Assembly: GCA_963730185.1 (NCBI GenBank) | Contig: CAVSQW010000012.1 | Coordinates: 288,001-352,000 of the forward strand | DNA: 64,000 nt | Direction: 5' to 3' | Source of the DNA: an uncultured Gemmatimonadales bacterium | GTDB taxonomy: Bacteria; Gemmatimonadota; Gemmatimonadetes; Gemmatimonadales; GWC2-71-9 | Shown: in pieces, positions 14,934 through 53,485 of the stretch | Layout of the letters: each line of letters starts with the position of its first letter | Position numbering within the stretch: the first letter of the stretch is position 1 | Position numbers and translations under genes: made by a program | Notes under the pieces: model-generated | The model's input: the letters and a program-made list of their open reading frames with translations, nothing else | Told to the model about the DNA's origin: nothing | Databases searched by the model: none

Positions 14934-14943
14934 CAGGATCCGT

Positions 14944-18848: not shown

Positions 18849-18862
18849 GGAGTGGTCCCTGC

Positions 18863-23138: not shown

Positions 23139-23141
23139 GGA

Positions 23142-24992
23142 TCAGCCCTGCCTCGGGGTATCGGGATCCGCGGTTCGGGTGGCCACGGCGTCTTCCGGCG
23201 TCGTCCGCGTACCCAGGTCGGTCGAGTCGACCTTGACCTGATTGGTCGGCACCGGCTTGCCGGCGAACCCGGGCGGCTGCACGTGCACCATCCCGCCCAC
23301 GATCGCGTTCAGGGCGCCGGCCACCGACTCGACGTTCATGTTCCCCTTCAGCGCCACGTTCATGCCGTTGAGCGTCGCGTCGCGACCGGCCTTGAGGGTC
23401 AGGGCGCCGGTGACCTCGAGGTAGTCGTCGCCGCTCACCTTCTTGAGCGACGGGCCCGACACGACCTGGGTGAAGCTCTTCGACTTCATCCTGAGCTCGC
23501 CCTCGGCCTCGAGGGCGATGTCGCCCCCGGACTTGATCGTGATCACCGGGGTGTCGCCGTTGGTCAGCTGCACCATGCACTTGCCTTCGGGCGTGAAGAC
23601 CTCGATGGTCTCCGCCCCGTCGTCGTCGAGCAGCTGGATGGTGTTGCCGCTCCGGGTAATGATCCGCTTGGCGGTATTCCCCGAGGTCGGCTCCGGCGCC
23701 TGGTCGAGACCGTTCCAGAGCCCCCCCACCACCACCGGGAACTCGGGATCGCCGGCCAGGAAGACCACCAGCACCTCATCGCCGATTTCGGGGATGAACA
23801 TCATGCCCCGTCCGTTCCCGGTGTGCGGAGTGGCCAGCCGAGCCCAGTAGGACTGCTCGTCGCCGCCGCTCCACCGATACTGCACCCGGACCCGACCCAT
23901 CTTCGACGGGTCCTCGTTGTCGATCACCTCGGCCGCGATCGGCCCCGCGATGGCGACCCGGGCCGGGGCCTGATAGCTGGTGAACGTCTTCCAGGGCGTG
24001 GCCTCGAACCGGTTGAGGTACTGCTGGTCCTTGAAGGTGTTCGTGATCCGGGTGATCCCCAGCTTGCCGGTGGTGGCCAGCTGGAAGTCCTTCCCCTCGA
24101 TCAGGTTCACCAGATCGCCCGCCTGGAGGCCGGGCTTGCCGGACACGCACTCGACCCGGAGCGCTCCGCCCATCGCCCGCTCGCTCTCCTGTCGGAGCTT
24201 GGCCTTGAACTCAGCGTGGTCGGTGGACACCGCGAACGGCTCCGCCAGGATCGGGTCGCCGCCCCCGGCATACCCTCGGGCCAGGTCATTGACCGTGGCG
24301 ACCAGCTTGGCCGCCCCACCCAGGGTTGCCGGGTTGGACCGGATGCCGGCGTGGGCGTGGGTCGACTTCTCCTTCAGGTCGTAGCTCGCGCCCGTCACGC
24401 CGTTGTTCACGGGCCGGGCCCGGGCTGTGACCTCGATGAGCGACTCACCCCAGATCAGATCCCAGCCCTTGTCGACGAACTCGTTCCGGATCTCGACCTG
24501 GGGACCCGATGTCACCAGAAAGCAGCCGGCCTCGTCGGCCAGGCGCTTCAAGAACTCGAACTCGGTCTCGCCCCACTGGACGAAGTCGAAGGGATCGGCG
24601 GCCGGGAGTTTGGCCACGACCTTGACGCCCAGCTTGGTGGCGACGTCGCCCAGCTTGGCGCGGGGGAAATGCCGGGTGTCCCGGAACTCGTGCCGGATCG
24701 AGGGCGAGACGCAGTCGAGCACGAACCGGGCGCCGAAATGGAGCAAGTGGCTCTGGGCCCCGTCGGCGACGACGCCCTGAAAGATCTCGAGCGGATCGGC
24801 CTCGTCCTCCTGCACGGTCACGCTGACCGGGGCCCGGAGCAGGTCCTCGAGGGCCACGGTTTGGGCCCGGTCGCGGGTGAACTCGATGGCGCAGCGGGTG
24901 TGCTCTCCGAGCTCCTGCACCACCTCGAGCGATTCCACTTCGCTGTTTCTGAGCACCAGGTCGCCGATGCTGACCCGGATGATGACTTTCAT
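23142..24992 (-). CDS. vgrG: VgrG spike protein
   Basis: VQWGETEFEFLKRLA hub, gp5 OB-fold DNEDPSKMGRVRVQY..WARLA..FIPEIGDEVLVVF..GDPEFPVVVG, then a beta-helix region. Confidence 0.93.
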   Translation of the reverse strand: MKVIIRVSIGDLVLRNSEVESLEVVQELGEHTRCAIEFTRDRAQTVALEDLLRAPVSVTVQEDEADPLEIFQGVVADGAQSHLLHFGARFVLDCVSPSIRHEFRDTRHFPRAKLGDVATKLGVKVVAKLPAADPFDFVQWGETEFEFLKRLADEAGCFLVTSGPQVEIRNEFVDKGWDLIWGESLIEVTARARPVNNGVTGASYDLKEKSTHAHAGIRSNPATLGGAAKLVATVNDLARGYAGGGDPILAEPFAVSTDHAEFKAKLRQESERAMGGALRVECVSGKPGLQAGDLVNLIEGKDFQLATTGKLGITRITNTFKDQQYLNRFEATPWKTFTSYQAPARVAIAGPIAAEVIDNEDPSKMGRVRVQYRWSGGDEQSYWARLATPHTGNGRGMMFIPEIGDEVLVVFLAGDPEFPVVVGGLWNGLDQAPEPTSGNTAKRIITRSGNTIQLLDDDGAETIEVFTPEGKCMVQLTNGDTPVITIKSGGDIALEAEGELRMKSKSFTQVVSGPSLKKVSGDDYLEVTGALTLKAGRDATLNGMNVALKGNMNVESVAGALNAIVGGMVHVQPPGFAGKPVPTNQVKVDSTDLGTRTTPEDAVATRTADPDTPRQG

Positions 24993-25017
24993 TGCGGTCC
25001 TCCCTGGGGCCTGGGGC

Positions 25018-25377
25018 CTAGCCCGCGGCCATTTCCCCGAACAGGGCCTTGCCTTCGGGTGACTCTATCGTCAACCGGAAGGCGCGCCGGCCGTCGACGC
25101 CGAAGGTCCCGGTGGTGATCGACTGGACCCGATACCCTGCCACGCCCAGGTTGCCGAGGGCCGCGTTGATGGCGTCCTGCAACCCTTCGTGATCGGTCCG
25201 ATCGCGACGGGCCGCTTCGGTGAAGGCCTCGAGCAGCCCGAACCAGGGCGCGTGGGGCCAGGCCCGACTCGACGTGCCGGCCATCACCTGAACGAGACCC
25301 AGTATCGCGTCGAAGCCCTCCTGCTCGACGAAACGTCCCTGAGGGGTGATCCGGAGCGGAAGGGCTATCGATCGCAT
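25018..25377 (-). CDS. tssE: TssE/gp25-like baseplate protein
   Basis: 119 aa with IALPLRI start and PWFG motif, between tube and spike genes. Confidence 0.6.
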   Translation of the reverse strand: MRSIALPLRITPQGRFVEQEGFDAILGLVQVMAGTSSRAWPHAPWFGLLEAFTEAARRDRTDHEGLQDAINAALGNLGVAGYRVQSITTGTFGVDGRRAFRLTIESPEGKALFGEMAAG

Positions 25378-25395
25378 GATCGGGCCGGGTGGGGC

Positions 25396-25416
25396 GGTCG
25401 GTCCAGCGGACCGACC
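25396..25416. terminator. hairpin between tssD and tssE
   Basis: GGTCGGTCC-AGC-GGACCGACC, 9-bp stem. No U-tract. Confidence 0.5.
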
Positions 25417-25431
25417 ACCCGTCGACGGCGC

Positions 25432-25872
25432 TTACTTCGTGAACTTGTGCTTCGAGACGTTCGACTCGTCGACCGCCACCACCAGCTCGAGCTTGAGCAG
25501 GTTCTTGAAGCCGATCTGTGAGGTCGAAACGGTCTCGGTCGCGATCACCGGGTTCCCCACCTCGAAGTGGGAGATCCAGCCCATGAACTCGACCGCGTGC
25601 AGCACCTTGTCGGCTTCGTCCATATAGTAGGTGATCTCGCACTTGTGGAGCGGATCCTTGCTCTCGGTCGCGATCTTCCACAGCTCGATCTGCTGCGACG
25701 GCGAGAGGTTGTCGATCACGCTCGCGTCCATCCAGATGTCCACCCGACCGACCATCGAGTCGCCGATCCGGCGACCGACCTGGTTGGCGTTCCGGGCGAT
25801 CCGGTAGGTGGCCTGAACGGGTCGGAACTCGATGCTATCGATCTTGACCTTGACGCGGTTGTACGTGGCCAT
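25432..25872 (-). CDS. tssD: T6SS-iii-type tube protein TssD (Hcp)
   Basis: YRIARNANQVGRRIGDSMVGRVDI and CEITYY..EADKVLHAVEF.GWISHF resemble Bacteroidota TssD. Strong GGAGAG RBS. Confidence 0.75.
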   Translation of the reverse strand: MATYNRVKVKIDSIEFRPVQATYRIARNANQVGRRIGDSMVGRVDIWMDASVIDNLSPSQQIELWKIATESKDPLHKCEITYYMDEADKVLHAVEFMGWISHFEVGNPVIATETVSTSQIGFKNLLKLELVVAVDESNVSKHKFTK

Positions 25873-25912
25873 GGTTCTCTCCAGTAAGGGTTGCGGCTCA
25901 AGCGCCGGGGGT

Positions 25913-26299
25913 TCAGAGGCCGAACAACTTCTTCATCCTCCCTAAGAGCGACGCGGGGGCGTCACTTTCCCTCATGCCGGGGTCGGGGACGGATGGGGCG
26001 GCTGCCTCGGCCGCCGGCGAGGCCGGAGCCTCGACGGACGGACTCGCGGCCTCAGCCCTGGGCGCGGGCCGGAATTCGAATTCGGGATCGCGCTCGGTGC
26101 GCGCCTGGTGGCGCGACGAGAAGTTGAGCACCGACATCCGGGTCTTGTCGCCCCGGGCCAAGTGGCCCGAGCCGTCCATCCGACGCTCGACCCGGATGTT
26201 GCCGCGCTCTTGCTTGGTGTACCGGAGGTCGGGCTTCCGGGTTCCGTCGGGGTTCGCCAACGGGTCGGGCGCCTCGGCCTCCTGGTCGTCAGCCGACAT
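25913..26299 (-). CDS. hypothetical protein with C-terminal amphipathic helix
   Basis: 128 aa, GAGG RBS, ends SLLGRMKKLFGL. Lies between tssC and tssD. Confidence 0.7.
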   Translation of the reverse strand: MSADDQEAEAPDPLANPDGTRKPDLRYTKQERGNIRVERRMDGSGHLARGDKTRMSVLNFSSRHQARTERDPEFEFRPAPRAEAASPSVEAPASPAAEAAAPSVPDPGMRESDAPASLLGRMKKLFGL

Positions 26300-26317
26300 G
26301 GATTACCTCGCTTATCG

Positions 26318-27664
26318 TCAGCCTTCGGCGCCCTTCTTGAAGTCCGGGGTATCGATCTTGAGCTCGAAGGTTTCCGCCGGTCCGACGGGCAGCACCTCGA
26401 GATTGATGTCGAGTACCCCCTGGGCGAACTTGTCCTCGTCCATGTCGATGTCGAGCGAATACTTGTAGATCGTCCCGCCCTTGAGCTCGTCTTCCAGGAA
26501 CTCCTCGATCGGGTTCCGGACCTGCTCCTTCACCAGATCGCGGGTCAGCCGCTGCTCCGCCACCCGGCGGAGGTAGACGGAGATTCGCCGCTCCAGGTAG
26601 CGAAGGACCCGGTACGACGTAAAGAACTTGAGCACCCCCTTGGGGTCCTCGGCCTGGGTCCGGCTCCCGACGAAACAGAGCTGGTTCGAGTCGTCGCGGA
26701 TCATGCAGAGCACCTGCCGCTCCATGGTCAGGTGCTCCATCTGGGAGATCCGGGGCTCGATCCGGGACTTCTCCACCCCGCGGATCTGCCCGAAGATCAT
26801 CCCGACCGGGCCTTGAGCGATCCCGCCGCCGGTGGTCCGGTCGGTCCGGGCCAGACAGCCGGCGAAGAGCAGCGAGGCCGGCGAATAGAGATCGGGGTCG
26901 TCGACGTCGCCGTCGGCCTTCTCGAACCAGTGGCGGTCGCGGAGCTTCACGGTCCCGGCGATCACCACGTCGGCGGCCGCCTTGTCCTCGGGGCGCTTCA
27001 GGAACTCGTAGGCGCCGCCGTCGGTCCGGAACTGGTCGGAGAGCTGCTTGAAGTTCTTCTCGTCCTTGAGGTCGCCGATCAGCAGCATGCCCCACTGGCT
27101 GGCAATGTCCTCGAGCCGCTTCCGGACGTTGTCGGGTACATAACCCGGCAAAACCAGGTTGCAGATGAACTGCCGGAAGTTGAAGGTGTCGTTCCGGCTC
27201 TGAATGAACTCGTCCAGCGCCTCGATGGTGGAGCTGTTGACGTCGCTGGTGATGACCTTGGTATCGGCGTTGAAGATGTAGAACTCCACCGGCGGCCGTT
27301 GCTGCGAGTCGCGGACCTCGGCGTTCTCGAAGAAGAGCTGGAGCTGCCGGTAGCTCCGCTCGATCGGCCGGATCTTCTCGTAGATCTGGGCCAGCACGTC
27401 ATCGCGGAGCGCCTCCATCGAGGCGATCTGCTCGTCGAGCTTCTTCAAGGCCTGTTCGTAGCTGTCCTTGGTGGAGAGCAGGCTGGAGAAGTCGGCGACC
27501 CGCTTGAGGAACTGGCCGGCGCTCTCGGCGGTGAAGATGTCCTTGAGCGCGGTCTTGGCCGGCGCGGGGTGAATGACGTTGAAGATCTCCTCGATCGCCT
27601 TCCCGGCCGCGCGCTTGCCGATGATGTCCTGCGCGCTCTTGACCATCACTTTCTCGTCGCTCAC
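26318..27664 (-). CDS. tssC: T6SS-iii-type large sheath protein TssC (DUF5458-like)
   Basis: IERSYRQLQLFFENAE, LVLPGYV, LYSPASLLFAG and SYRVLRYL motifs, with a sheath-type C-terminus. Confidence 0.85.
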   Translation of the reverse strand: MSDEKVMVKSAQDIIGKRAAGKAIEEIFNVIHPAPAKTALKDIFTAESAGQFLKRVADFSSLLSTKDSYEQALKKLDEQIASMEALRDDVLAQIYEKIRPIERSYRQLQLFFENAEVRDSQQRPPVEFYIFNADTKVITSDVNSSTIEALDEFIQSRNDTFNFRQFICNLVLPGYVPDNVRKRLEDIASQWGMLLIGDLKDEKNFKQLSDQFRTDGGAYEFLKRPEDKAAADVVIAGTVKLRDRHWFEKADGDVDDPDLYSPASLLFAGCLARTDRTTGGGIAQGPVGMIFGQIRGVEKSRIEPRISQMEHLTMERQVLCMIRDDSNQLCFVGSRTQAEDPKGVLKFFTSYRVLRYLERRISVYLRRVAEQRLTRDLVKEQVRNPIEEFLEDELKGGTIYKYSLDIDMDEDKFAQGVLDINLEVLPVGPAETFELKIDTPDFKKGAEG

Positions 27665-28131
27665 GCCTCACCTCCCGACAGCCGCTTGAGCGCGTCCTGG
27701 AACTCGCCCAGAGCCTCGATGATCTCTTTCCGCTGATCGTCGTTCTCCCAAGCCCGCCGCACCGCGAGCACCGAGAACCGCTCCCGCATCCGGTGCAGGA
27801 GATCGATCTGGCTCTGGAGATCGGCCAGGTCGTTCCGCTTGCCCGGGGTCCGGGAGCCGATCTTCTTGGGATCGAAGTCCTTGAGGCTGTTGAACTCGAG
27901 ATCGGCGACGAACTCGGTGCCCTCTTCCCCGACGGTCGTCTTGAAGTCGAGGGCGGGCTTGAACTTGTCGAAGGCCTCCTGGAGGTCGGAGACCTTGGTC
28001 GGGCCCTCATCCTCGGGGCATTCCTCTCCCACCCGCTCGACGGTCATCGGCATGACGGTCGCCGTGGTTTCGGTGGGAACCTGACGGGGCGCCTGTTTGA
28101 CGCCGGCACGGGTGACTTTGACGACTGGCAT
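27661..28131 (-). CDS. tssB: T6SS-iii-type small sheath protein TssB
   Basis: LQEAFDKFKP, LEFNSLKDFDPKKI and a C-terminal helical hairpin. 4-nt overlap with tssC. Confidence 0.82.
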   Translation of the reverse strand: MPVVKVTRAGVKQAPRQVPTETTATVMPMTVERVGEECPEDEGPTKVSDLQEAFDKFKPALDFKTTVGEEGTEFVADLEFNSLKDFDPKKIGSRTPGKRNDLADLQSQIDLLHRMRERFSVLAVRRAWENDDQRKEIIEALGEFQDALKRLSGGEA

Positions 28132-40320: not shown

Positions 40321-40336
40321 CCTGAAGAGGCTCTCG

Positions 40337-41737: not shown

Positions 41738-42076
41738 TCAGACGAAGTCGCGCCGGTCGAGGTTCGGGAAGACGACAGTGCAGGTGCCAGGGTTGATGCC
41801 CTCGATTCGGACCCGACCGTTGACGTCGAGCGTGCCCTCGATCGGCGTCATCCCGGGAGGGGTGACGATGAATCGCTGGTAGGGCACCGGCTTCTGGTCG
41901 GGATCGAGCAGCTCGATCCCGACAAAGGTTTCGGCCTTGGTCGGGTCCACCATGATCACGGACCGGGGCGGCGGGCCATCCGCCGGCGGGGCGGGCGTCG
42001 AGTCCGGCGGTAGCGGCTCGAACCGACAGGGTGCGCAGCCCCCCATCGCGTCGACCTGACCTGGCTCGAGATTCAT
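41738..42076 (-). CDS. stand-alone transthyretin-like (PAAR-adaptor type) domain protein
   Basis: IELLDPDQKPVPYQRF...GTLDVNGRVRIEGINPGTCTVVFPNLD is paralogous to the PAAR protein's middle domain. Confidence 0.7.
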   Translation of the reverse strand: MNLEPGQVDAMGGCAPCRFEPLPPDSTPAPPADGPPPRSVIMVDPTKAETFVGIELLDPDQKPVPYQRFIVTPPGMTPIEGTLDVNGRVRIEGINPGTCTVVFPNLDRRDFV

Positions 42077-42622
42077 CGGCGAACCACCAGTGGGGCGGCG
42101 GTCGGCGTCCGGCCCGACGGAGCGGCCGGACCGGGGGCGAGGACCTGAAGGCCGTAGGTGTCCGGGTCAGTCACCGCGAACGCACGCACCGGGCCGAAGG
42201 TCTCCTCGATTTGAGACTTGGTGCCGACGGCCAGGAACTTGGGCAGGACCCGCGGATCGTAAAACCGGAAGTACCAGGACTCGCCGTTCGGCGCGTCGAC
42301 CACAGCAACCGTCTGAAGTGCTTCCGCAGCTCCTCGAGCGAGACGTCGGTGAGGGCGAACACCCCCAGGGCGCGGCCCAGAGATCCGCGGTGATCCAGTC
42401 CAAGGTCAAGGGATCGACCTTGCACAGGTACGGGGCGATCGCCCAGAGCTCCTCCTCGGCCCGACCCTGGTAGAGCGAGACCGCCCGGGTCGCGCCCAGC
42501 TGTCGCATCTTCAGAGGGACCGCGACGACGCCGGTGGCATCGATGACCGCGAAGAGGCGACCCCGGTCAGCCCACTCGCGGGCCTGCAGGACCGACGCCG
42601 ACCTCTGGTGCACTTCAGGCAT
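42073..42622 (-). pseudogene. DUF4123 T6SS effector chaperone, two frameshifts
   Basis: LFAVIDA, SLYQG..APYL, PWG|VF, LRKHFRRLL|V and YFRFYDPRVL are spread over three frames. Shifts near 42364 and 42303. Confidence 0.85.
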
Positions 42623-42766: not shown

Positions 42767-43687
42767 ATGTCGCAACCCGCGGCCCGCCTGACGGACATGC
42801 ACGTCTGCCCGATGCAGACGCCGGCGGTCGTGCCCATTCCTCACGTCGGCGGCCCGATCACTGGGCCGGGCCAGCCCCAAGTGCTGATTGGCGGCTTGCC
42901 GGCGGCTCGGGTGGGTGATTTCTGCGTCTGCGTTGGCCCGCCGGCCCCGATCGCCATGGGGTCGTTCACGGTACTGATCGGCGGCAAGCCCGCCGCACGG
43001 GTCGGTGACATGACCGGGCACGGCGGAACCATCATGCCGCCCGGCTGCCCGACCGTGCTCATCGGCGATGCGGGCGGCGGGGCCGGGGGCCCGGCCGGCT
43101 TCACGATGGCGGGCGCCAGAGCGAGCGGAGCCGCCTTCACCCGCACGACCTGTCCGGCCGAAGGGGCGATGGCGGCCGCGGCCGGCTCGCCCCTGCTGGC
43201 GACTGGCGATCCCGAAAAGAAGAGCTGGATCGAGATCGAGTTGGTGGACCAGAAGGGGAAGCCCGTGCCCCACGAGCGGTACCGGGTGGTGCCGCCGGGC
43301 GCGAAACCGAGGGAGGGATTCCTCGACGATCAGGGCTTCGCTCGAATCGGCGGGATCGACCCCGGAACCTGCCAGATCACGTTCCCGAACCTCGATGCGG
43401 CCAGCTGGAAGCCGGAGAAGGGCGACCCGGGGCACGCCGTGACGTCGGTCCCGGTCTCGACCTACCACCCGTCGGTCGGACCGGTGGCGGCGCGCCCGTC
43501 GCACGTCGGGCGTCCCTCGGTGGGCCCGGTCAAAGTTCAGGTGGTGGTTCTCCAGCGTCCCTCGGTGGGCGCAGTCACGGTTCAGGTGGCATCCCTCCGG
43601 CGACCGTCGGTCGGGTTCGTCACGGTCCGGGTGGCGAGTTTCCAACGGCCCTCGGTTGGACCGGTAAGCGTGCGCAACGTCGGCTGA
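42767..43687 (+). CDS. PAAR protein with TTR-like domain and C-terminal 15-aa repeats
   Basis: Three PAAR motifs with His/Cys ligands (PAARLTDMHVCP, PAARVGD twice). Confidence 0.92.
   Translation: MSQPAARLTDMHVCPMQTPAVVPIPHVGGPITGPGQPQVLIGGLPAARVGDFCVCVGPPAPIAMGSFTVLIGGKPAARVGDMTGHGGTIMPPGCPTVLIGDAGGGAGGPAGFTMAGARASGAAFTRTTCPAEGAMAAAAGSPLLATGDPEKKSWIEIELVDQKGKPVPHERYRVVPPGAKPREGFLDDQGFARIGGIDPGTCQITFPNLDAASWKPEKGDPGHAVTSVPVSTYHPSVGPVAARPSHVGRPSVGPVKVQVVVLQRPSVGAVTVQVASLRRPSVGFVTVRVASFQRPSVGPVSVRNVG
43469..43684 (+). repeat. five ~45-nt repeats encoding PSVGxVxVxVxxxxR
   Basis: PSVGPVAARPSHVGR, PSVGPVKVQVVVLQR, PSVGAVTVQVASLRR, PSVGFVTVRVASFQR and PSVGPVSVRNVG. Confidence 0.85.
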
Positions 43688-43705: not shown

Positions 43706-44134
43706 ATGGCGGAGCGGATCAAGGCGAAAGTGGGCGACACGGTGGAGACCTCGTTCAACCTGGCCTACAAGAAGGCCGAGGTGGCGCGGCTGCCGGACCG
43801 CAGCCAGTACGAGGCCATCGACTTCGTGATGTTCTGCGAAGCGGGCGGCAGGGAGTTCCTCGGGTCGGGGCTCCAGGCCAGCGTGGGCAACCACATCGTA
43901 TGTACCGTGCGGGAAGTGACCCAGGACGACCAGCCGGTGACGGCGCAGTGGGACTTCACCGCCTCGCCGTCCGAGAGTCCGGACTTCTTCAAGACCGGTG
44001 ATCTCTGGCAGCTCTACCTGGCCTACGTCGAGAAAGGTGGCTCGCCTCCGGGTGACCTCCATTCGCCCCGGGTCCACCTGCTGGCCGAGGTCGAGCTGGT
44101 AGCCGCCGATCCCGCATCGGGCACCAAGGCGTAA
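43706..44134 (+). CDS. hypothetical protein
   Basis: 142 aa with GGGAG RBS, co-oriented in the PAAR operon. Confidence 0.7.
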   Translation: MAERIKAKVGDTVETSFNLAYKKAEVARLPDRSQYEAIDFVMFCEAGGREFLGSGLQASVGNHIVCTVREVTQDDQPVTAQWDFTASPSESPDFFKTGDLWQLYLAYVEKGGSPPGDLHSPRVHLLAEVELVAADPASGTKA

Positions 44135-44137
44135 CCC

Positions 44138-44785
44138 GTGTCGGACGACAAGGTAACCCCGACCGATCACGCCCTTCGTCCCGGGGACCACCTGAGCCGA
44201 GTGGCGGGAACCTATCGGTTCCGCTCGTACGGCCCGCTCTGGAACGACGCCGCCAACGCCGCGTTCCGCCAGCGCCGACCCAACCCTCACATCCTCGCCG
44301 CCGGCGAGTCGGTCCACGTCCCCGAACTCAACCTCCGCGAAGTGGACCGCGCCACCGAGGCCCGCCATCGCTTCCGGGTCGAGCTCCACCCGCTGGTCGT
44401 TCGGCTGGCTCGAAAGCACTGGGACGGGACGCTCGACGACCGGGCGCCGGCCGAGGTGCGCCTCGACGACAAGCCGGTCGCAGCGGACCCCGGCGGTCCC
44501 GGCGAGCTGGCGGTGCCGGTCGGGACCCTGGACGACCGGCTCACGATCCGGGTCGACGACGCCGAGCTGACCGCCCGGATCGGCTTCCTCCAGCCAATCG
44601 ACACCCTGGCCGGAGTCCGGGACCGGCTCACCAACCTCGGCTATCGCGCCGGCGACGCCGACCGCCCCGACGTCCCCGGCTTCCGCTCGGCGGTCGAGGA
44701 GTTCCAGTGCGACCATGGTCTCGTCGTCGACGGCAAGGTCGGCCCCGTGACCCGGGCGGCGCTGGTGAAGGCGCACGGCTGCTGA
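44138..44785 (+). CDS. LysM-like N-term / peptidoglycan-binding domain protein (cassette 1)
   Basis: HALRPGDHLSRVA...PNPHILAAGE and RLTNLGY...AVEEFQCDHGLVVDGKVGPVT. Confidence 0.8.
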   Translation: MSDDKVTPTDHALRPGDHLSRVAGTYRFRSYGPLWNDAANAAFRQRRPNPHILAAGESVHVPELNLREVDRATEARHRFRVELHPLVVRLARKHWDGTLDDRAPAEVRLDDKPVAADPGGPGELAVPVGTLDDRLTIRVDDAELTARIGFLQPIDTLAGVRDRLTNLGYRAGDADRPDVPGFRSAVEEFQCDHGLVVDGKVGPVTRAALVKAHGC

Positions 44786-46012
44786 ATGCCAGAGGATTTC
44801 CTCGCCGTCGCGCCGACCGACGTCGCCACCGAGCACAACACGATCAAGGCCCCGCTGGCGCCGGTGGCGGTCTGGGAGCTGACCGACGCGCACTTCGCGT
44901 TCGACTCGTCGGTGCTGCTGCCGTCGATGACCCTCGAGCTGGCGGAGTTGATCGCGATCGTCAAGACTCTCCCCGGCACCTTGCTGTCGGTGTTCGGTCA
45001 TACGGACACCACCGGCAACGACGACTACAACAAAGTGCTCGCCGGGCGTCGCGCAATGGCACTGTATGCGCTGCTGACGAGAGAGGTCGACCTCTGGGAC
45101 CGCCTCTTCACCCATCCGCACGGCGGTGACGACTGGCGCCGAGAGCACGAGTTCTCCCTGGCGCTGATGCGCGACGCCATCGGTCCGGAGGCGAGCGGAT
45201 TGACCCGGCGCCCCCTCTTCCAGCGCTTCATGACGCTCCTCGCCCGGGATCCCGCCGGGAAGTCCTTCGGACTCCCGAAGCGGGCCTTTCTGGGCAAGGG
45301 CGCCGACGCCAAGGGCAGGGGCGACTTTCAGGGATGCGGCGAGTTCAACCCGCTCCGGATCTTCTCCCAGGCGGAGCTGGCCGCCTTTCGGGACCCCGCC
45401 GCGAAGGAGACCCGCGACGCAGAGGGCGCGATCAATCGGCGCGTCTCGGTGTTCTTCTTTCCGGCCGACACCAAGATCTCGGTCCCGAAATGGCCCTGCC
45501 CGCGGGCCCTGGAGGGGACCGCGGCGTGTCGGAAGCGGTTCTGGTCCGACCACGCCGCGCGCCGCCGGCCCGGCGAGCGCCGACGGGAGGAGCCGGGCGA
45601 CGCCGACACTTTCGGCTGCCGGTTCTACGACCGAATCGCCATCGACGCCGCGCGACACGGCAAGACTTCGTCGTTCGGGCGTCTGGTGGTTCGAGCGGAG
45701 TCGGTCTTGCCTTCGGTCAGCAAGCGCGAGCTGGTGGTGCTCGATCCGGCCGGCAAGCTTCTGGGCTCGGCGGTGTTGAATCCCGAGACCAAGCCGGGGG
45801 CGCCACCACCCCCACCCCAACCCGCCCAGATCGTGCTCAAGCCGCCCTTCGGACCGGGCGAGCATCGGATCGAGCGGCGGACGGCTGGTGAGGCGGAGGC
45901 GGCCCCGGTTCGGATGGATTTCCAGGCGTTGATCGGCGCCGTCCTGCGGGAGCGGGACAAGTTCTCGCCTCCAGAGGTCGTTGCCCCGTCGACCGCGAAG
46001 CCGGCCTCGTAA
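44786..46012 (+). CDS. OmpA-like domain protein without signal peptide (cassette 1)
   Basis: FAFDSS, GHTDTTGNDDYNKVLAGRRA and NRRVSVFF motifs. Confidence 0.8.
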   Translation: MPEDFLAVAPTDVATEHNTIKAPLAPVAVWELTDAHFAFDSSVLLPSMTLELAELIAIVKTLPGTLLSVFGHTDTTGNDDYNKVLAGRRAMALYALLTREVDLWDRLFTHPHGGDDWRREHEFSLALMRDAIGPEASGLTRRPLFQRFMTLLARDPAGKSFGLPKRAFLGKGADAKGRGDFQGCGEFNPLRIFSQAELAAFRDPAAKETRDAEGAINRRVSVFFFPADTKISVPKWPCPRALEGTAACRKRFWSDHAARRRPGERRREEPGDADTFGCRFYDRIAIDAARHGKTSSFGRLVVRAESVLPSVSKRELVVLDPAGKLLGSAVLNPETKPGAPPPPPQPAQIVLKPPFGPGEHRIERRTAGEAEAAPVRMDFQALIGAVLRERDKFSPPEVVAPSTAKPAS

Positions 46013-46016
46013 CGCC

Positions 46017-47534
46017 GTGGCCAAGAAGCCGCTCGACGTTCTCCTCTTCGAGGCGCTGATCAACCAGCGACGTGACGATGGGACCTGGCTGGTGGTCCCG
46101 ACCAGCGACGTCGCCTTCGAGGTGTCCCTCGACGACGGCGTCAGCTTCCAGCCAGTCGAACGGAGCGGCATCCCTTTCGTTCCGGATTTCTTCCGGCTGC
46201 CCTCCGGCCCACGGCCGATTCAGTATCTGGTCCGGGCGACGCCGACATCGTCCCAGCTCTGGCCGGTGGCGTGCCGGTTCACCCTCGGCCCGGACGGCGG
46301 CACCTTCGCTCGGGACGGATCGGAGAAGGGGAACCCGGTGATCGAGCCGGGGGCCTGGCCGATGCCGGTGCGGACGTCGCTGGAGGACAGCTCGATTCTC
46401 GCCGCGTTCGGCTTCGGTAACGCCACCCTCATCCACCACGTCGCCCACCTCTCCCGAGTTCGGGACGCCAGCGATCAGGCCCTGGCGCTGATCAACGAAG
46501 GCAAGCCGATCGACCACCCCGACGACTGGCTCGCCAGCTGGAACCAGGGTACCCCCGCCCGATCACATCTGGGGCGGAACCCGTTGGTGGCCGACCGCAA
46601 GCTGTTGCTCGAGGAGGGGCCGGTCCGGTTCTTCGCTCAGGAGGTCGCCATTCTGGAGATCGCGGACGCTCCGGTGCCGTTGGTGGCGGTGTCCTGGTCA
46701 GCCGGAGTGCTGCGGGGCGGGACGCCGACTCCGTTCCTGGTCTACATCCACCCGGATCACGGTCAGAACGTCGACTACTACGGAGGGCAGCCATATCCCG
46801 GCCCGCGCTATCTGTACTCGGTCGGGTTCCGCAATCTGTTTCACGAGAGCGACCCCCTGGTGGCGCCCAACGGATCCAAGGGCCTCACCACCCAAGTCGC
46901 GGCCGCGGCCAAGGCCGCGGTCGTCGTGGTGCCCATCGCCCGGTTGGGGAATCATCTCGGGCCCCTCGCGGACGCCACCGTGATGGAGCAGGTGCTGCGG
47001 GAGATCCAGACCTTCTTCTATCACCGGGCCGACGACAGCCCACCGCCGCAGCTGGGCCGGGTGGCGCTGTCCGCCTACAGCAACGGCGCCGGGATCCACT
47101 TGAATGCGTTCCTCCAGAAGAACCAGCGGCACCCGTTCCTGGCCAACCTGGTTCGCGAGCTGTACCTGATGGATCCGAGAATGAACGACGAAGCGTTGGT
47201 GAACGCGGTGATCGCCTGGTCACGGACCGGCCAGGCCGCTGACAAGCGGATCCGGGTGTACCTGGGGGCCCGGCACGCCGAGTTCCTGAGAGTGATCGGG
47301 GCCGGCGGTTTCACGCTGTCGCCTGGGCTCCAGAGCACTCCCGACGGTCGGCGAAGCGTCGCCCTGATGGAGGGGAGCTCGTGGATCGCCGCGGCACGCC
47401 GAGAGGGTGCGTCCAAGGAGGTGGCCCAGGGGTTCGCCTTCTGGGGCACCGTCCATGAGGCGATCCCCGGGACGATGTTCACCCATGCACTGCTAAACAG
47501 CGGGTTCGAGGAGGCGTTCGATCTCGGTTTCTAG
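46017..47534 (+). CDS. hypothetical protein, alpha/beta-hydrolase-like C-terminal half (putative effector)
   Basis: VALSAYSNGAG nucleophile-elbow-like motif, LYLMD and a late His (HEAIP). Confidence 0.55.
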   Translation: MAKKPLDVLLFEALINQRRDDGTWLVVPTSDVAFEVSLDDGVSFQPVERSGIPFVPDFFRLPSGPRPIQYLVRATPTSSQLWPVACRFTLGPDGGTFARDGSEKGNPVIEPGAWPMPVRTSLEDSSILAAFGFGNATLIHHVAHLSRVRDASDQALALINEGKPIDHPDDWLASWNQGTPARSHLGRNPLVADRKLLLEEGPVRFFAQEVAILEIADAPVPLVAVSWSAGVLRGGTPTPFLVYIHPDHGQNVDYYGGQPYPGPRYLYSVGFRNLFHESDPLVAPNGSKGLTTQVAAAAKAAVVVVPIARLGNHLGPLADATVMEQVLREIQTFFYHRADDSPPPQLGRVALSAYSNGAGIHLNAFLQKNQRHPFLANLVRELYLMDPRMNDEALVNAVIAWSRTGQAADKRIRVYLGARHAEFLRVIGAGGFTLSPGLQSTPDGRRSVALMEGSSWIAAARREGASKEVAQGFAFWGTVHEAIPGTMFTHALLNSGFEEAFDLGF

Positions 47535-48130
47535 TCGTCCGCGGCCCAACGGATCGACGGCCACGGAGGGAAGGGCGTGGGCGCAGTGGAATGGAAGGAT
47601 CGCTGGCCGGTAAACCGGTTCAGGGGCGGGACGTCCCGCCAGACGCGGAGGTCCCAGACCGGTCCGGTTGGCGAGGATTCCAACCGGGATCGCAGCCGGA
47701 CCGGCCCCTGGGAGTCAAGCGGAAATAGCCTACTCACCCGGGCGCTGCTCACCAGGTCGTCGGTGGCGAGCAGGAGCTGGAACACGAGCTCGAGGTCGTT
47801 GGCGTCGGCGTAGGGAGCCGAATACTCGACGGTGAAGTTGGCCATCTGATCGGGATGGCGGATGGTGAGCAGGCGGAGGGATCCGGCTCGGACCAGGAGC
47901 TGGTCGCGGACCGCGGCCTTGGCCGCCCCGATGTCTTGGAAGAACTTGGTGGCCGCCGCCGTGGTGGCGAACGCGATCTCCACCTCAGTCTCGGGCCCGT
48001 CCCCGTCGACCGTGACGCTCGCGGCGGCGTCGCCGAAGGCTCCGACGACCCGAGCGAAACCGGCGGCATCGTCCGCGGTCCAGGCCCCGGCAGGCCGGAG
48101 CTCGACGCAATGGGGGGTATTGTCTGGCAT
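47531..48130 (-). CDS. hypothetical protein
   Basis: 199-aa ORF of normal composition, convergent, stops overlapping by 4 nt. Confidence 0.6.
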   Translation of the reverse strand: MPDNTPHCVELRPAGAWTADDAAGFARVVGAFGDAAASVTVDGDGPETEVEIAFATTAAATKFFQDIGAAKAAVRDQLLVRAGSLRLLTIRHPDQMANFTVEYSAPYADANDLELVFQLLLATDDLVSSARVSRLFPLDSQGPVRLRSRLESSPTGPVWDLRVWRDVPPLNRFTGQRSFHSTAPTPFPPWPSIRWAADD

Positions 48131-48396
48131 GAGATCGGAGGCAAATGGTACGGATCGGTCGATCGGGGGGCAAGCCCTTGGCCCGGCCCGGGTGCAAGGC
48201 GCTGGACAGGGTGCAGGCTCCGCCCGAGATTTCAGCCGTTCCCGGACGACGACCGGGGATCCCGTCCTGGCCCCTGGGACGGACTACGGGATGATTTCGA
48301 ATCGCCCCGGCGCACCCGACGACCGCTCGATCCGGATCGGTCCGCGCGACGCCGAGATCCGGACCCAGCCAACCCATCCTCACCACTGAGGGGCCG

Positions 48397-49107
48397 ATGG
48401 CCGACGAGCACACCATCGCCCCGGGCGACCACCTGTTCCGCCTGGCCCGCGAACGGGGATTCCGAACCGTTCGGGCGCTCACCGACGAACCGGCGAACCG
48501 ATTTCTCCTGGCCAAGCGGGTCAACCCGGCCACCCTGGCCGAAGGCGATGTCGTCACGATCCCCGCCCTCGAGCCGAAGCAGACCAGCGGCGCCACCAAC
48601 CAGTTCACCACCTTCACGGTGGCCGAGAGCGGGCTCCTCCTCAACCTCCGCCTCCAGGACACCGACCAGCAACCGCTCGCCACGCGGGCCTACCGCCTGG
48701 TCGTCGCGGAGCACGATCCGGCGGGCGGAACCAGCCCGGCCGACCCGATCGACGACGTGACCTCGGCCCAGGGAGAGATCGCCAAGGAGATTCCCGACTT
48801 CGCCTTCGAGGGCGAGCTCACCGTCCATGAGAACGAGGACCCGGCCTCCGCCGTGATCGGAACAATCAAGGTTCTGATCGGGGTTCTGGAGGCCGCCAAC
48901 ACGATCCGGGGTCAGCAGGCCCGGCTCAACAACATGGGCTACTTCGCGGGCTTCTCCGAGAAGGACCTCGATCAGCTCCACTGGGCGATCGAGGAGTTCC
49001 AGGCCGACCACGGCCTGAAGGCCACCGGGCGGATCGACGATCCCGCGACCTTCAACCGGATCGCCCACGAGCACGGCGACCTGCTCAAGAGCGAGAAGGT
49101 GCCCTGA
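48397..49107 (+). CDS. LysM-like N-term / peptidoglycan-binding domain protein (cassette 2)
   Basis: HTIAPGDHLFRLA...NPATLAEGD and RLNNMGY...AIEEFQADHGLKATG. Paralog of 44138-44785. Confidence 0.8.
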   Translation: MADEHTIAPGDHLFRLARERGFRTVRALTDEPANRFLLAKRVNPATLAEGDVVTIPALEPKQTSGATNQFTTFTVAESGLLLNLRLQDTDQQPLATRAYRLVVAEHDPAGGTSPADPIDDVTSAQGEIAKEIPDFAFEGELTVHENEDPASAVIGTIKVLIGVLEAANTIRGQQARLNNMGYFAGFSEKDLDQLHWAIEEFQADHGLKATGRIDDPATFNRIAHEHGDLLKSEKVP

Positions 49108-50867
49108 TGGCCAGCACGATCAACATTCCCGACATGGTGGAGGAAAACGCCAACGGGATCTTCGCCACCCAGCCCATCCGGGCGAGCTTGCCGGTCCTGG
49201 TGGCGCCGACCGACTCCAGCCGGGCCGCGGCCACCAACCTGATTCGCCGCCCGCTGGTGGTCGTCGCCTGCGCCAATCTCAAGGAGTACAACTTCGACTT
49301 CGACTCGTCGGTGGTGCTCCCCCAGGCGCGCGACGGCTTCACCTCCCTGGCCGGCCTGATCGGCCGTCATCCGGGGTCGCCCATGTCAATGTTCGGGCAC
49401 ACCGACCCCGAAGGACCGGTCGAGTACAACCAGTTTCTGAGCGAGCGGCGCGCCCGGGCGATCTTCGCCGTGCTGGTACGCGACCCGGCGATCTGGGATG
49501 ATCTCTTCCGGCATCAGCAGGGCGCCAGCGGCGACGATTGGGCCAAGCACGGCGCGATCGAGATCATGCTCACCGGCCTCGGCCTCCAGCCGGGCGAGCC
49601 AACCCCCGGCCTCGCGCCCGAAACGCGCGACGCCCTTCGGCAGCTGCTCGGCCTTCCACCCGGCGCGTCGGTCAACAACGCGGCCGTCCGGCTCGCGCTG
49701 TTCGAGCGGTACATGGATTTTCTCCGGAGCGGCTCCGACGGCAAGGCGACCTTCCCGGCGGTCACGACCGACGACTTTCTGGGGAAGGGCAAGCAGCGCG
49801 GGACCCTGCAGGGCTGCAGCAAGTTCAATCCCCAGCTCTTGCTCAAGAAGCAGGACCAGGACCGCTTCGACAAAGACAAGTCGCCGGAGACCAAGCAAGC
49901 GCGCGACCTCAAGAACGAGAACAACCGGCGGGTGGTGATCTACTTCTTCGCTCCGGGCTCCGCGATCGATCCCGAGCGCTGGCCTTGCCCCACGGCGCAG
50001 ATGGGACCGGGACGGTGTGAGGCCCGCCAGTGGTCGGACGGCACCGACCGACGGAAGAAGCTCTTCGTGGTCCATCCCCGGCGATTCGGACGCGAGGTTC
50101 GGCCGGAGGCCCGCGAGCTCGACCCGCGGAGCCCCGTGCTCGAGCAGAAGCTGGGCAACGAGGAGACGACGTTCGGATGCCGGTTCTATCACGGCATCGC
50201 GGCCCATTCCCCCTGCGAGCGTGACCTCAAGATGTGGGGGCTCCGGATCCTGATCGACGCCCCGACCCCGATTCAGTCCGGTGGGACCAACAAGTCGAAC
50301 AAGAAGATCCCGCTGGCCAACCGCCGCTACGTGGCCCTGATCGGGTCGTCGTCCGACGCCCCGTCGGTCCGCGGTCGGACCACCGCTGAGGGCATGATCG
50401 GCCTCCCGTTCTTCGACCCGAACGTCCCGATCACCCTCAAGATCGACGCGTTCGCCGCCCTGGCTCCCCCCCCGGCCCCGGCCAAACCCGGCGATCCGGC
50501 CCCGGCGGCGAAGCCGACCTCCGACTCGGAGCGGTTCGAGGACGAGGATCAGTTCCTGGTGCTCCGTCTCGACGGCAGCAAGCTCCGCCCGATCCGGGTC
50601 CGAGACGAGAGCTCGCTGGGGTTCGATCCGGACTTCGACGACGATCCCGCTCCGGTGACTGACGCGGATCGCCGGCTCGGTGCCCTCCAGCGTCTCTTCA
50701 ATCTCGGCTACGGCAGCGACGACACCGGGGGCGACGCCTTCGGGAACTGGACCAACGACCAGCGTCGGGCCTTTCTGAAGCAGTTCCAGCGCGACCACGA
50801 CCTCGACGAGTCCGGCACGCTCGACCAGGCGACCACCGACGCCCTGATCAAGGCGCACGGGTCGTGA
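49107..50867 (+). CDS. OmpA-like domain protein with C-terminal PG-binding domain (cassette 2)
   Basis: FDFDSS, GHTDPEG..YNQFLSERRA, NRRVVIYFF and RLFNLGY...FQRDHDL motifs. Confidence 0.8.
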   Translation: MASTINIPDMVEENANGIFATQPIRASLPVLVAPTDSSRAAATNLIRRPLVVVACANLKEYNFDFDSSVVLPQARDGFTSLAGLIGRHPGSPMSMFGHTDPEGPVEYNQFLSERRARAIFAVLVRDPAIWDDLFRHQQGASGDDWAKHGAIEIMLTGLGLQPGEPTPGLAPETRDALRQLLGLPPGASVNNAAVRLALFERYMDFLRSGSDGKATFPAVTTDDFLGKGKQRGTLQGCSKFNPQLLLKKQDQDRFDKDKSPETKQARDLKNENNRRVVIYFFAPGSAIDPERWPCPTAQMGPGRCEARQWSDGTDRRKKLFVVHPRRFGREVRPEARELDPRSPVLEQKLGNEETTFGCRFYHGIAAHSPCERDLKMWGLRILIDAPTPIQSGGTNKSNKKIPLANRRYVALIGSSSDAPSVRGRTTAEGMIGLPFFDPNVPITLKIDAFAALAPPPAPAKPGDPAPAAKPTSDSERFEDEDQFLVLRLDGSKLRPIRVRDESSLGFDPDFDDDPAPVTDADRRLGALQRLFNLGYGSDDTGGDAFGNWTNDQRRAFLKQFQRDHDLDESGTLDQATTDALIKAHGS

Positions 50868-53485
50868 CCGTCCCCCATTTCCCCAACGACGCCAAGCCCG
50901 TCGCCGACGACGTGGGGGCGCGTCGTACCGAGACCGCCCGGCGCTCGTTCCACCGGATCAACGCCCCACGGTACGATGTCGCCGTCGACGGCAACCAGCG
51001 TCGGATCGGCAACAAGCGACGACCGTCGGGACTCGCCAAGGAATCCGGCGCTCGCGGTCCGGAGGCCTTCGCCGCGAGCGGCTTCCTGGAGCACTTCGCC
51101 CGGCTAACCACCAAGCTGCTCAAGTCGGCACTGCTCGCGATCCCGCTGGTCGGCCAGGCCGCGTTCCTGGTCGACGCGTTCTTCAAGACCCTGACCGGCA
51201 AGAGCCCGCTGGAAGAGCTCTTCGCCGCGCTCGCCAAGCTGGCCAGCTCCAGCGTCGAGGGCGCCCTCTTCGCCCGGCTGATGCGCGCCATTCCCGCCTG
51301 GGTCCCGGTGGCCCGACGGGGCTACCGGGCCGAGTTCCGCTACGAGGAAGACGGGACGCCGCGGACGGTCGACAAGGAGGAAGAGCGAGAGGTCGAGGGG
51401 TTCCTCACGGCGAGCTACGCCCTCCACAACGACGTCGTGTTCACCCAGTGGAGCCACTTCCGGCATTGGGCCTTTCATGTCCTGCCGACTCCCGGTTTCG
51501 ACTACCTGATCGGCCGGGGCAACATTCCCGATCCGGCGGAGAACGGCTTCATCGACCGGATCGACACCAACATCAACGCACCCCTCTTCGAGCGGGCGCT
51601 CCGGATCTACGGCCAGCAGCGACCCAGCACCGACGATCCGGACCGCGGGGCCCTCGAGTGCCTGTTCGACGTGGGCGCGATCACCAAGCCACCGGGCGAC
51701 GGCGGCTTTCACGGGGCCCACTTCTCCGGCTTGTGGCCGTATTGGCCGATGGCGGGCGACTACTTCTGGGCCGCCGGGCGGTGGAGCTACGACTGCATGC
51801 GCGCCACCGCGGCCGACAAGACCGAGATCTACCCCAGCCAGATCAGCCCGATCAAGGCGTTCGCGGCCGCCCGGTACGAGGGAGTCAAGTTTCCGGAGAA
51901 CGAGAGCACCGTCGAAGCGGTCCGCTTCTTTTTCTTCGCCAGCTCCGAGGGAGGCTTTCGCGACTTTCACGTCGTGCCGGGTCGGAAGGGCCCGCCGGGA
52001 CAGCCCCACATCACCCTGCGCGATCGCGACTATGAGTTCGTGGTCGACCTCCCACCGCACGCCGAAGGGCGGAGCGCCTACCCGGTGGGATCCACCATCG
52101 ACTTCGCCTTCAACACGCTGGTGATCCGGCCGCGCCTGCTGGTCCAGGTGCGGGCCGCACCGTTCGCGGTGGGCGACAAGGTGCCCCAATTCGCCGAGGG
52201 ACTCAAAGCGGTCGCGATCGAGCCCAAGATCGAGCTGCTCCGCCCCTCGAAGCCGACCGAGCGGCCCCAGCAGGTGAAGATCACCATCCCGCTGAGTCAG
52301 CTGCCGGCCGCCGACCCGCAAGCTCGGGAGATGGTCGGGCTGGACATCGCGCTCGGCTGGCACGACCCGACCGGCGAGGAGCTGAAGGATCTGGTCCTGA
52401 TCGACGCCGACATCCGGTTCCCGAGATTCTACAGCCAGTCCGGGCCGGTCCGGCTCATGACCGCGATCAACGGGCGGTGGAACATCCTGACCGAGGACGT
52501 GGAGGAAGAGCCGGACGAGCCCCCGGCCGACTTCCCGCCTCCGGGCTCCCGATCGATCCACCGGGTTCGCCTCTTCCTGCCCAAGGAGGCTCCCGTCTCG
52601 ATCGTCGCCGGGGGAATTTGGTTCCACGGCTTCGGCGAGTTCATGGAGGGCGACACGCTCGCGGGTCGGCGGCTCTTCGTGGGAGGACTGCTCCTCAACG
52701 TCGACGACGACACCAAGCGGCGGCTGCAGGGGGTCATCGACGACGTTCGCAAGACCGTCAACGACCTCCGGAAGGCGGGGCAGACCGTCAAGGATCCCAA
52801 GGCGAGGATCAAGGCGGAGATCCAGAAGCAAATCGACGAGGAGCGGAAGAAGGGCACCGACCCCCGGGCCCTGGCCGAGCTGCAGAAGCAGATGGACGCC
52901 CTGGTGGACGGGCTCCCCGACACGCCGGACGGGATCCAGGCGGCCCTGGCCGCCCTGGACCGCCGGCTGACCGGCATCCTCGACGTGCTCGACGGGATCG
53001 AGGAGTTCCTGAAGGTCACCGACGACCTCATCGGCGAGCGATACTTCCCGGTCTGGCACGAGGACATCGACAACGAGCAGAAGACCGGCGTCGAAGAGAG
53101 CAAGCGGGTGTCGGCCATCGCCCGAACGATGTTCATCCACCCCACCCCGGTGGTCAATCGCCACGACGAGCCCATGGGCTGGGTCGAATTCATCGACCGG
53201 GGGCGGGGCACGCTCGGGCGGGAGCCGAGTGGGGCGTTGATCGTGCCGAATCCGCTGGGGCGGGGGACCGCCGGGGAGCTGCTCAAGCTGGCCGACGCCA
53301 ACGGCGGCAAGCCCATCCGGATGCGGCTGGTGGCGCAACCCTTTACCGGGGTAGGCAGCGGCAACAACCTGGCTCGACGGATCAACCCGCCCCAGGAGCG
53401 GTCCGACTACGAGTTCCAGGTGAACCTCGAGGTCCACCGGTTCCCGTTCCCAGCGCCCAAGAGCGGCGATCCCGAGGTCGGCTGA
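50864..53485 (+). CDS. large hypothetical protein (putative effector)
   Basis: 873 aa, 4-nt overlap with the upstream gene, no signal peptide, internal coiled-coil. Confidence 0.75.
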   Translation: MTVPHFPNDAKPVADDVGARRTETARRSFHRINAPRYDVAVDGNQRRIGNKRRPSGLAKESGARGPEAFAASGFLEHFARLTTKLLKSALLAIPLVGQAAFLVDAFFKTLTGKSPLEELFAALAKLASSSVEGALFARLMRAIPAWVPVARRGYRAEFRYEEDGTPRTVDKEEEREVEGFLTASYALHNDVVFTQWSHFRHWAFHVLPTPGFDYLIGRGNIPDPAENGFIDRIDTNINAPLFERALRIYGQQRPSTDDPDRGALECLFDVGAITKPPGDGGFHGAHFSGLWPYWPMAGDYFWAAGRWSYDCMRATAADKTEIYPSQISPIKAFAAARYEGVKFPENESTVEAVRFFFFASSEGGFRDFHVVPGRKGPPGQPHITLRDRDYEFVVDLPPHAEGRSAYPVGSTIDFAFNTLVIRPRLLVQVRAAPFAVGDKVPQFAEGLKAVAIEPKIELLRPSKPTERPQQVKITIPLSQLPAADPQAREMVGLDIALGWHDPTGEELKDLVLIDADIRFPRFYSQSGPVRLMTAINGRWNILTEDVEEEPDEPPADFPPPGSRSIHRVRLFLPKEAPVSIVAGGIWFHGFGEFMEGDTLAGRRLFVGGLLLNVDDDTKRRLQGVIDDVRKTVNDLRKAGQTVKDPKARIKAEIQKQIDEERKKGTDPRALAELQKQMDALVDGLPDTPDGIQAALAALDRRLTGILDVLDGIEEFLKVTDDLIGERYFPVWHEDIDNEQKTGVEESKRVSAIARTMFIHPTPVVNRHDEPMGWVEFIDRGRGTLGREPSGALIVPNPLGRGTAGELLKLADANGGKPIRMRLVAQPFTGVGSGNNLARRINPPQERSDYEFQVNLEVHRFPFPAPKSGDPEVG

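Follow-up and report, generated by a model that had tools for sequence, protein, structure and literature searches.

Cargo effectors of type VI secretion systems (T6SS) have no signals that are universal, and with every new delivery domain a catalogue of toxins has come into view. Here we describe two gene cassettes within a 64,000-nucleotide stretch of contig CAVSQW010000012.1 from an uncultured Gemmatimonadales bacterium, hereafter the window, each encoding a small partner protein, an OmpA-like core protein and a large cargo protein. The cassettes are probably T6SS auxiliary effector modules in which the core serves as an N-terminal carrier, in a chain running from spike through partner and core to cargo. 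The MIX, RIX and WHIX delivery domains are comparable with the core family. For FIX, a published study (PMC6688995) describes a conserved N-terminal domain with interchangeable C-terminal enzymes, which also occurs stand-alone beside a cargo gene, and more than 90% of its carriers have a T6SS, with vgrG, PAAR or DUF4123 neighbours; the core family is alike in these respects. Unlike MIX, FIX, RIX and WHIX, however, the core is an OmpA-C fold of approximately 290 amino acids (aa) with an inserted PG_binding_1 domain and four invariant cysteines, a partner gene of its own usually accompanies it, and proteases and hydrolases, not nucleases, make up most of its cargos. Its hosts also differ, being Gemmatimonadota, Acidobacteriota, Planctomycetota, Myxococcota and others.

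A binary module of Vibrio offers a second comparison. In it, VP1388 is a MIX co-effector and VP1390 an OmpA-C-like toxin that lyses cells from the periplasm (PMC8728615). That module and our cassettes both combine a co-encoded helper with an OmpA-C protein linked to a T6SS but, compared by features, the Vibrio module has a middle immunity gene with a signal peptide that the cassettes are without, whereas the cassettes have a LysM/β-sandwich/PG_binding_1 partner, variable tails on the OmpA protein and a third, cargo gene. Scans of the partners against Pfam and NCBIfam gave no MIX-type match, and no dedicated MIX profile search was made. LysM has been reported to aid binding between VgrG and effectors, and LysM and PG_binding_1 are both recruiter domains in vgrG loci (PMC10673891); the partner unites the two. 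The main text of that paper contains no occurrence of "OmpA" and limits PG_binding_1 to gamma-proteobacteria.

In fold and binding-motif residues the core resembles the peptidoglycan (PG) anchors TagL, TagN, Pal and OmpA, but it has no transmembrane (TM) segment, signal peptide or lipobox, and it has instead a split domain, a Cys-rich extension and enzyme fusions. Membership among TagL/Pal-type envelope anchors was therefore rejected, with no lipobox, Tat motif or signal-like start found. In Tox-OmpA of the Photorhabdus virulence cassettes and extracellular contractile injection systems (PVC/eCIS), too, the injected protein contains an OmpA domain (PMC3482391), but there the domain is a putative toxin always at the extreme C-terminus, whereas the OmpA domain of the core is N-terminal in nearly all members. 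Within the open-access literature, subscription papers and supplements aside, we found no description of this architecture.

The paired cassettes and the split OmpA core

A first-pass annotation of the window had described a duplicated three-gene cassette, in which paralogous pairs of PG-binding and OmpA-like proteins were each followed by an unrelated large open reading frame (ORF). All six ORFs were confirmed, with the start of the third gene set at 46017 by the gene caller; the genes inside each cassette abut or overlap by a few bases, and a search of the host genome, which is 82% complete, found exactly two cores and two partners. Core 1 (408 aa) and core 2 (586 aa) align over 337 columns with 35% identity (E 6e-50), and every motif quoted earlier as common to them was found in both. 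The two partners share 31% identity across 225 columns (E 2e-24). The cargos are indeed unrelated (best E 4.4), and a shared origin for them was rejected on that basis. Recent duplication of the cassettes was rejected by the 31-35% identity and by the placement of the cores in separate clades; judged from these alignments, the two cassettes are ancient paralogs, and "duplicated" holds in that sense. Among close homologs, the named ones are from Gemmatimonadota.

Export signals were judged throughout by a hydropathy heuristic. None of the six window proteins (0/6) has a signal-like N-terminal hydrophobic stretch, in agreement with the earlier description, and one hydrophobic 19-residue segment lies within the 873-aa cargo 2. 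The proposed check of homologs for signal peptides was run on 164 cores and came to the same result: there were no lipoboxes, no Tat motifs, one TM-like segment and seven hydrophobic flags, none of them signal-like, six arising from a conserved P-[VI]-x-V-x-P stretch and one from a truncated start. Such flags were raised for 2 of 64 partners versus 241 of 787 other neighbouring proteins.

An AlphaFold2 (AF2) model of core 1, built with 115 homologs, was confident from approximately residue 11 to 290, with predicted local distance difference test (pLDDT) scores mostly above 90 at approximately 30-285. It has an OmpA-C fold (β-α-β-α-β-β) split by an insert, followed by a short, β-rich tail modelled with low confidence. 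The best structural match was the PG-binding domain of TagL (VIA Z 11.3, root-mean-square deviation 2.0, 113 residues), with RmpM tied within 1 Z, and Foldseek matched the core to an OmpA C-terminal-like domain (E 5e-4). In the GHxD...N..LS..RA motif, which aligned to OprF, residues H72, D74, N82, L85 and R89 are invariant in 115/115 homologs, as are R218 and R219, also residues of the OmpA motif. The Asp and Arg of the OmpA motif bind peptidoglycan, and we infer from the conserved residues that the core may bind the cell wall. Four cysteines (C184, C238, C248 and C278) are also invariant in 115/115 cores. A fifth and a sixth (at alignment positions 29 and ~290) come as a pair, with 65 sequences having both, 50 having neither and none having just one, which suggests a disulfide or a common metal site.

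Of 14 homolog inserts picked by hand, 10 are PG_binding_1 domains (E<0.01); neither window copy scores, the domain being eroded or deleted in both. A β-sandwich of ~70 aa follows the core and often precedes a second PG_binding_1. This β-sandwich, presumably TTR- or FIX-like, is common to the PAAR tails, the middle of the partner and the post-core region (hhalign, 93.6-97.0%); VgrG tails also carry it by hidden Markov model, and some copies match CarboxypepD_reg (PF13620). The N-terminus of the partner weakly matched the LysM of a phage tail initiator (E 0.003).

We also observed a divergent sister subfamily with a split-OmpA core and a different four-Cys spacing (L042:4105-8082 and L028:17721-20000). 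It has the zincin tail and the c5 downstream gene seen with typical cores. The core family is wider than the profile that we used.

Gene order and cargo variation across the family

At E<=1e-30, a profile search placed the core family in 869 clusters at 50% identity. A genome scan confirmed 483 stretches, the best 80 of which were used, and a metagenome scan gave 79 loci from 98 stretches. Among the best 80 we found Gemmatimonadota, Acidobacteriota, Planctomycetota, Myxococcota, Armatimonadota, Methylomirabilota, Nitrospirota, Eisenbacteria and Betaproteobacteria, and the core is present in the cultured, non-pathogenic Paludibaculum fermentans, Aquabacterium humicola and Pseudaquabacterium terrae. 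Genes were called by a codon-model script, and any locus whose core it missed was dropped; identical sequences entered the counts a single time, and near-identical strains stayed separate.

The partner lies directly upstream of 97 of 141 cores and a core directly follows 88 of 108 partners, these adjacent genes having no other gene between them. Operons in the order vgrG, partner, core, cargo recur, and the operon order is conserved across at least eight phyla. In two loci (L026 and L028) a full partner, encoded directly before the core, is fused to PAAR, and in a third (L051) the PAAR fusion is to a partner without LysM; this ties the partner to the spike tip. Within 4 kb upstream, vgrG, PAAR or DUF4123 was found for 22 of 99 cores, or for 36 of 99 when β-sandwich proteins were counted.

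When homologs and their downstream genes were tabulated, the proposal of a variable cargo was borne out and extended to fused forms with enzyme domains. Tails longer than 270 aa occur on 41 of 153 complete cores, 23 of them with an HExxH motif, and for 89 of the other 112, short-tailed cores the next gene lies on the same strand and encodes 280 aa or more. Most core tails had no Pfam match; domains fused to the core in database homologs include calpain C2, PAD, reprolysin-like, M91, Het-C and EEP. The 58 separate cargos of the first locus set fell into 16 clusters and 10 singletons, with PLD, trypsin-like, zincin and metallophosphoesterase-motif kinds among them and one weak match to a T6SS effector (BTH_I2691). 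An M15-like kind was also seen as a separate downstream gene. One zincin was found both fused and as the next gene (L081), and one metagenome-assembled genome holds six cores with six different cargos.

In a quick IQ-TREE tree of the cores (83 rows, midpoint-rooted for drawing), the clade of core 1 comprised nine rows (Shimodaira-Hasegawa-like approximate likelihood ratio test, SH-aLRT, 97), and their downstream genes are of five kinds. The clade of core 2 comprised 14 rows (support 88) with c2, the family of cargo 2, downstream in 12/12 scored rows; c2 also follows two cores outside this clade. No pair with at least 65% core identity had different cargos (0/25), indicating that cargo exchange is slow. 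At 45-65% core identity, mean tail identity was 0.26-0.49 for same-cargo pairs (n=37) versus 0.09 for different-cargo pairs (n=580).

Cargo 1, in the variable slot, is predicted to be α/β hydrolase-like. Its A-Y-S355-N-G, D386 and H480 are invariant in seven selected aligned homologs, and its atlas leads (0.84-0.85) were weak and all from one α/β hydrolase clan; neither Pfam nor PDB gave a match. For cargo 2, in the stable slot, the AF2 model was confident, with a predicted template modelling score (pTM) of 0.81. It had no Foldseek match at E<=1e-3 and no PDB sequence match, which does not show a new fold, and its weak Foldseek rows were led by C2-domain proteins. Its family has 35 homologs, one of which (P0139) is fused to an EEP domain, and cargo 2 is possibly membrane-acting.

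Linkage to T6SS and proposed role

Presence of a T6SS was scored with the sheath gene as a proxy. Among 61 relatives, the core was found in 10, all of which had TssC of the window type, itself present in 13/61; both core and partner were absent from 3 of the 13 TssC-positive relatives (73%, 76% and 93% complete). The 80 more distant loci represent 58 distinct genomes, 50 of which were examined (L041, L058, L060, L077, L087, L089, L107 and L112 were left out). VipB was found in 43/50 of these and a PF17541-type TssC in four more, for a total of 47/50. The background sheath rate was 25/250 in an even draw of Acidobacteriota, and no core was found in those 250 genomes. In a draw of 151 genomes from the Paludibaculum family, VipB was present in 107/151 and in 14/14 core-positive genomes, four of which were already in the earlier set, and the core was present in none of the VipB-negative genomes (0/44). 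The naive probability of ~0.008 for 14/14 versus 107/151 is overstated because kin are not independent. The T6SS linkage expected from the first-pass annotation was thus recovered, with cores found almost only alongside sheath genes (10/10, 47/50 and 14/14), and occurrence without an injection system, which would have spoken against it, was limited to 1 of the 50 distant genomes (G063). The family-level sample, drawn around G099, was itself from a T6SS-rich Acidobacteriota lineage (107/151 with VipB versus 25/250 phylum-wide).

Two further genomes lacked a sheath match. G061 has a TssF fragment. G082, from Armatimonadota, had no VipB, TssC or phage-sheath match in its genome, and its vgrG, which has a β-sandwich tail, is followed consecutively by genes for a HEAT protein, partner and fused core. 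This divergent spike locus (L200:9931-19999 and L201:1-7395) also contains an 862-aa protein and three related small ORFs (one with the β-sandwich). The 142-aa ORF from Armatimonadota gave no match to the Hcp-like protein of the window.

In the window itself, a tail cluster lies ~16 kb upstream of the cassettes, beyond the PAAR, DUF4123 and β-sandwich genes that precede them. It encodes TssB, TssC (PF17541 type), VgrG, a TssF-like protein, TssG, TssK, ClpV/ClpB, an FHA protein and a kinase, with Hcp-like and TssE-like ORFs assigned by position only, and is kept in 11/21 same-genus genomes. The cluster is likely the delivery machine for the cassettes. The phage-type sheath PF04984 was not found in the host genome, and a search for TssN, run without a positive control, gave no match. 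Genes for VWA, FHA and multi-TM proteins and for Ser/Thr kinases flank the cluster, and these might form a different membrane anchor.

The architecture, the fusions, the gene order, the co-occurrence with T6SS and the lack of export signals all support the carrier reading, and from them we infer the binding chain. In the proposed mechanism, DUF4123 together with the β-sandwich of PAAR or VgrG would recruit the partner, and the partner in turn would recruit the core, tying it to the PAAR/VgrG spike. TTR-like VgrG tails have been discussed as effector hooks in an earlier study (PMC13324451). The core would then carry a fused enzyme, as in about a quarter of its members, or bind the product of the next gene, with its own β-sandwich tail perhaps selecting and binding the cargo. 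Less certainly, once injected, the core could anchor the complex to the target cell's wall by its conserved OmpA pocket, and its paired cysteines could become oxidised in the target periplasm. DsbA of the target cell is reported to activate some T6SS effectors (PMC5792426).

Several observations weigh against this reading. Exported-looking next genes followed only 5 of 41 fused cores and 2 of 37 separate cargos, and no convincing immunity gene was seen beside cargo 1 or cargo 2; such scarce exported immunity genes fit periplasmic antibacterial toxins poorly. The local machine is atypical, because TssL and TssM had no match in the host genome or in four relatives (the control was positive in E. 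coli). Most core copies are orphans, with 77 of 99 having no vgrG, PAAR or DUF4123 within 4 kb upstream, and the upstream linkage of 70% reported for FIX is far above the 22/99 of the core family (PMC6688995). No partner-core fusion was found, with one long N-terminal extension (P0265) among the 150 listed representatives checked. Because the PG_binding_1 insert and tail have often been lost, any wall binding would depend on the OmpA pocket. The earlier claim of swappable cargo held for slot 1, with its five downstream kinds, and did not hold for slot 2, where c2 is kept; among pairs with at least 65% core identity, none differed in cargo. Core 1 and L039 have the common cargo family c16 with unrelated tails (8% identity), and the split zincin of L081 may be a frameshift, as it overlaps the core gene near an N-run. 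Finally, G063 matched none of VipB, TssC, VgrG, TssF and phage sheath, and the core-positive genomes are large and include kin that are not independent.

A broader and less probable reading is a multi-phylum loading and homing system, not described before, with a chain of three links: the β-sandwich of PAAR or VgrG, the LysM/PG-binding partner and the OmpA-Cys carrier. In it a PG-anchor fold would have become a carrier that is injected, folds by disulfide formation in the target periplasm, clamps onto the prey wall and bears interchangeable enzymes there, and the system would work with the classical T6SS, with the Gemmatimonadales cluster lacking recognisable TssL/TssM and with the divergent Armatimonadota spike locus. 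The core marks hundreds of clusters now annotated plainly as "OmpA family protein" in abundant, little-studied phyla of soil and water, and it leads to numerous cargo families that Pfam does not match, the relatives of both slots included. A role for LysM plus PG_binding_1 helpers becomes testable.

The strongest competing explanation, which we consider unlikely although it deserves attention, is that the cargos are exported by the T6SS but are not antibacterial, being hydrolases for scavenging dead biomass or for acting on eukaryotes (protists or fungi, for example), and that the OmpA/PG domains tether them to the wall of the producer or of a carcass. The few exported immunity-like genes would be expected under this explanation, and the spectrum of cargos (zincins, calpain, PAD, Het-C, EEP, PLD, esterase-like proteins and the weakly C2-like cargo 2) suits lipid or protein substrates or eukaryotic targets. 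However, tail-specific genes (c5 seven times and c12 seven times) and tandem paralog pairs (L050, L086, L114 and L178) lie downstream of fused cores, and tail-specific and tandem downstream genes are typical of immunity arrays. An HExxH metallopeptidase is, moreover, a proven periplasmic T6SS toxin (PMC6899460).

We regard as improbable a second explanation in which the OmpA-Cys core is itself the toxin, sequestering or disrupting the wall like VP1390 or Tox-OmpA, with the partner as co-effector and the downstream genes as independent effectors. VP1390 provides the precedent of a protein with an OmpA-C-like domain that lyses cells from the periplasm (PMC8728615), and the invariant pocket residues and four cysteines would suit such a role. 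The core, however, occupies the place of a delivery domain, on the N-terminal side of many unrelated enzyme domains; its tail varies together with the next gene, and so conserved a domain has no conserved immunity gene. Slightly less probable still is that the proteins are unsecreted, TagL/TagN-like accessory wall anchors that serve the apparatus of the producing cell, possibly in place of the absent TssL/TssM. The top structural match to TagL (within 1 Z of RmpM) and the local lack of detected TssL/TssM are consistent with such an anchor, whereas the absence of a signal peptide, lipobox or TM segment, the multi-copy orphan loci, the enzyme fusions, the 43 genomes with classical VipB and the 3/13 TssC-positive relatives without core and partner argue against it. 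The explanation that OmpA/PG-binding envelope genes were simply duplicated in place and have their neighbours by chance agrees with the automatic label "OmpA family protein" but is contradicted by the operon order across phyla, the T6SS co-occurrence and the lack of export signals, and can be dismissed as very improbable.

Neighbouring genes in the window

The features of the window are given in Table 1.

Table 1. Positions, strands and supporting evidence for features of the window
Feature	Position	Strand	Evidence or remark
T6SS-like tail cluster	14103..28131 (wider span to 30830)	-	Pfam/NCBIfam; single copy in genome
Stand-alone β-sandwich (presumably TTR/FIX-like) protein	41738..42076	-	51% identical to PAAR tail domain
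DUF4123 adaptor gene, two one-base gaps	42073..42622	-	Pfam DUF4123; homologs intact
PAAR + β-sandwich (presumably TTR/FIX-like) + C-terminal P-S-V-G repeats	42767..43687	+	PF05488 E 2.5e-24
Conserved 142-aa protein, cluster c1	43706..44134	+	19 copies in 16 loci; no Pfam/NCBIfam match
Partner 1: LysM-like + β-sandwich + PG_binding_1, no signal peptide	44138..44785	+	Profiles, hydropathy
Core 1: split OmpA-C (PG_binding_1 deleted from insert) + four invariant Cys	44786..46012	+	AF2, alignment
Cargo 1, 505 aa, predicted α/β hydrolase with S355, D386, H480	46017..47534	+	Homolog alignment
199-aa orphan ORF, convergent with cargo 1	47531..48130	-	No homolog in fetched loci
Partner 2, architecture as partner 1	48397..49107	+	Profiles, alignment
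Core 2: split OmpA-C (degenerate insert), Cys motifs, β-sandwich, acidic linker, C-terminal PG_binding_1	49107..50867	+	Profiles
Cargo 2, 873 aa, family c2, β-rich multidomain, two helical inserts (one hydrophobic)	50864..53485	+	AF2

The c1 protein accompanies the cassette in Gemmatimonadota and is a candidate chaperone. Its position varies, being after PAAR, before the partners or after cargo 2, and some loci hold two copies. At the two gaps in the DUF4123 gene, related soil contigs are uninterrupted (two runs at one place and one run at the other), and the interruptions are therefore probably long-read assembly or sequencing errors.

The end of the PAAR protein (43440-43687) consists of P-S-V-G-x-V repeats, and similar repeats terminate other Gemmatimonadales PAAR proteins as well as a cargo-2 homolog (P0153). 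Between the tail cluster and the cassettes, at 37657-41629, a secreted Big_1-repeat protein with a C-terminal CxxCH lies beside a MetA-pathway-like outer-membrane protein. An HtpX-like M48 protein is encoded at 53576-55126, and its gene adjoins the cassette in six Gemmatimonadales loci. The HExxH motif is absent from 5/5 readable homologs, and the protein is possibly a catalytically dead accessory protein.

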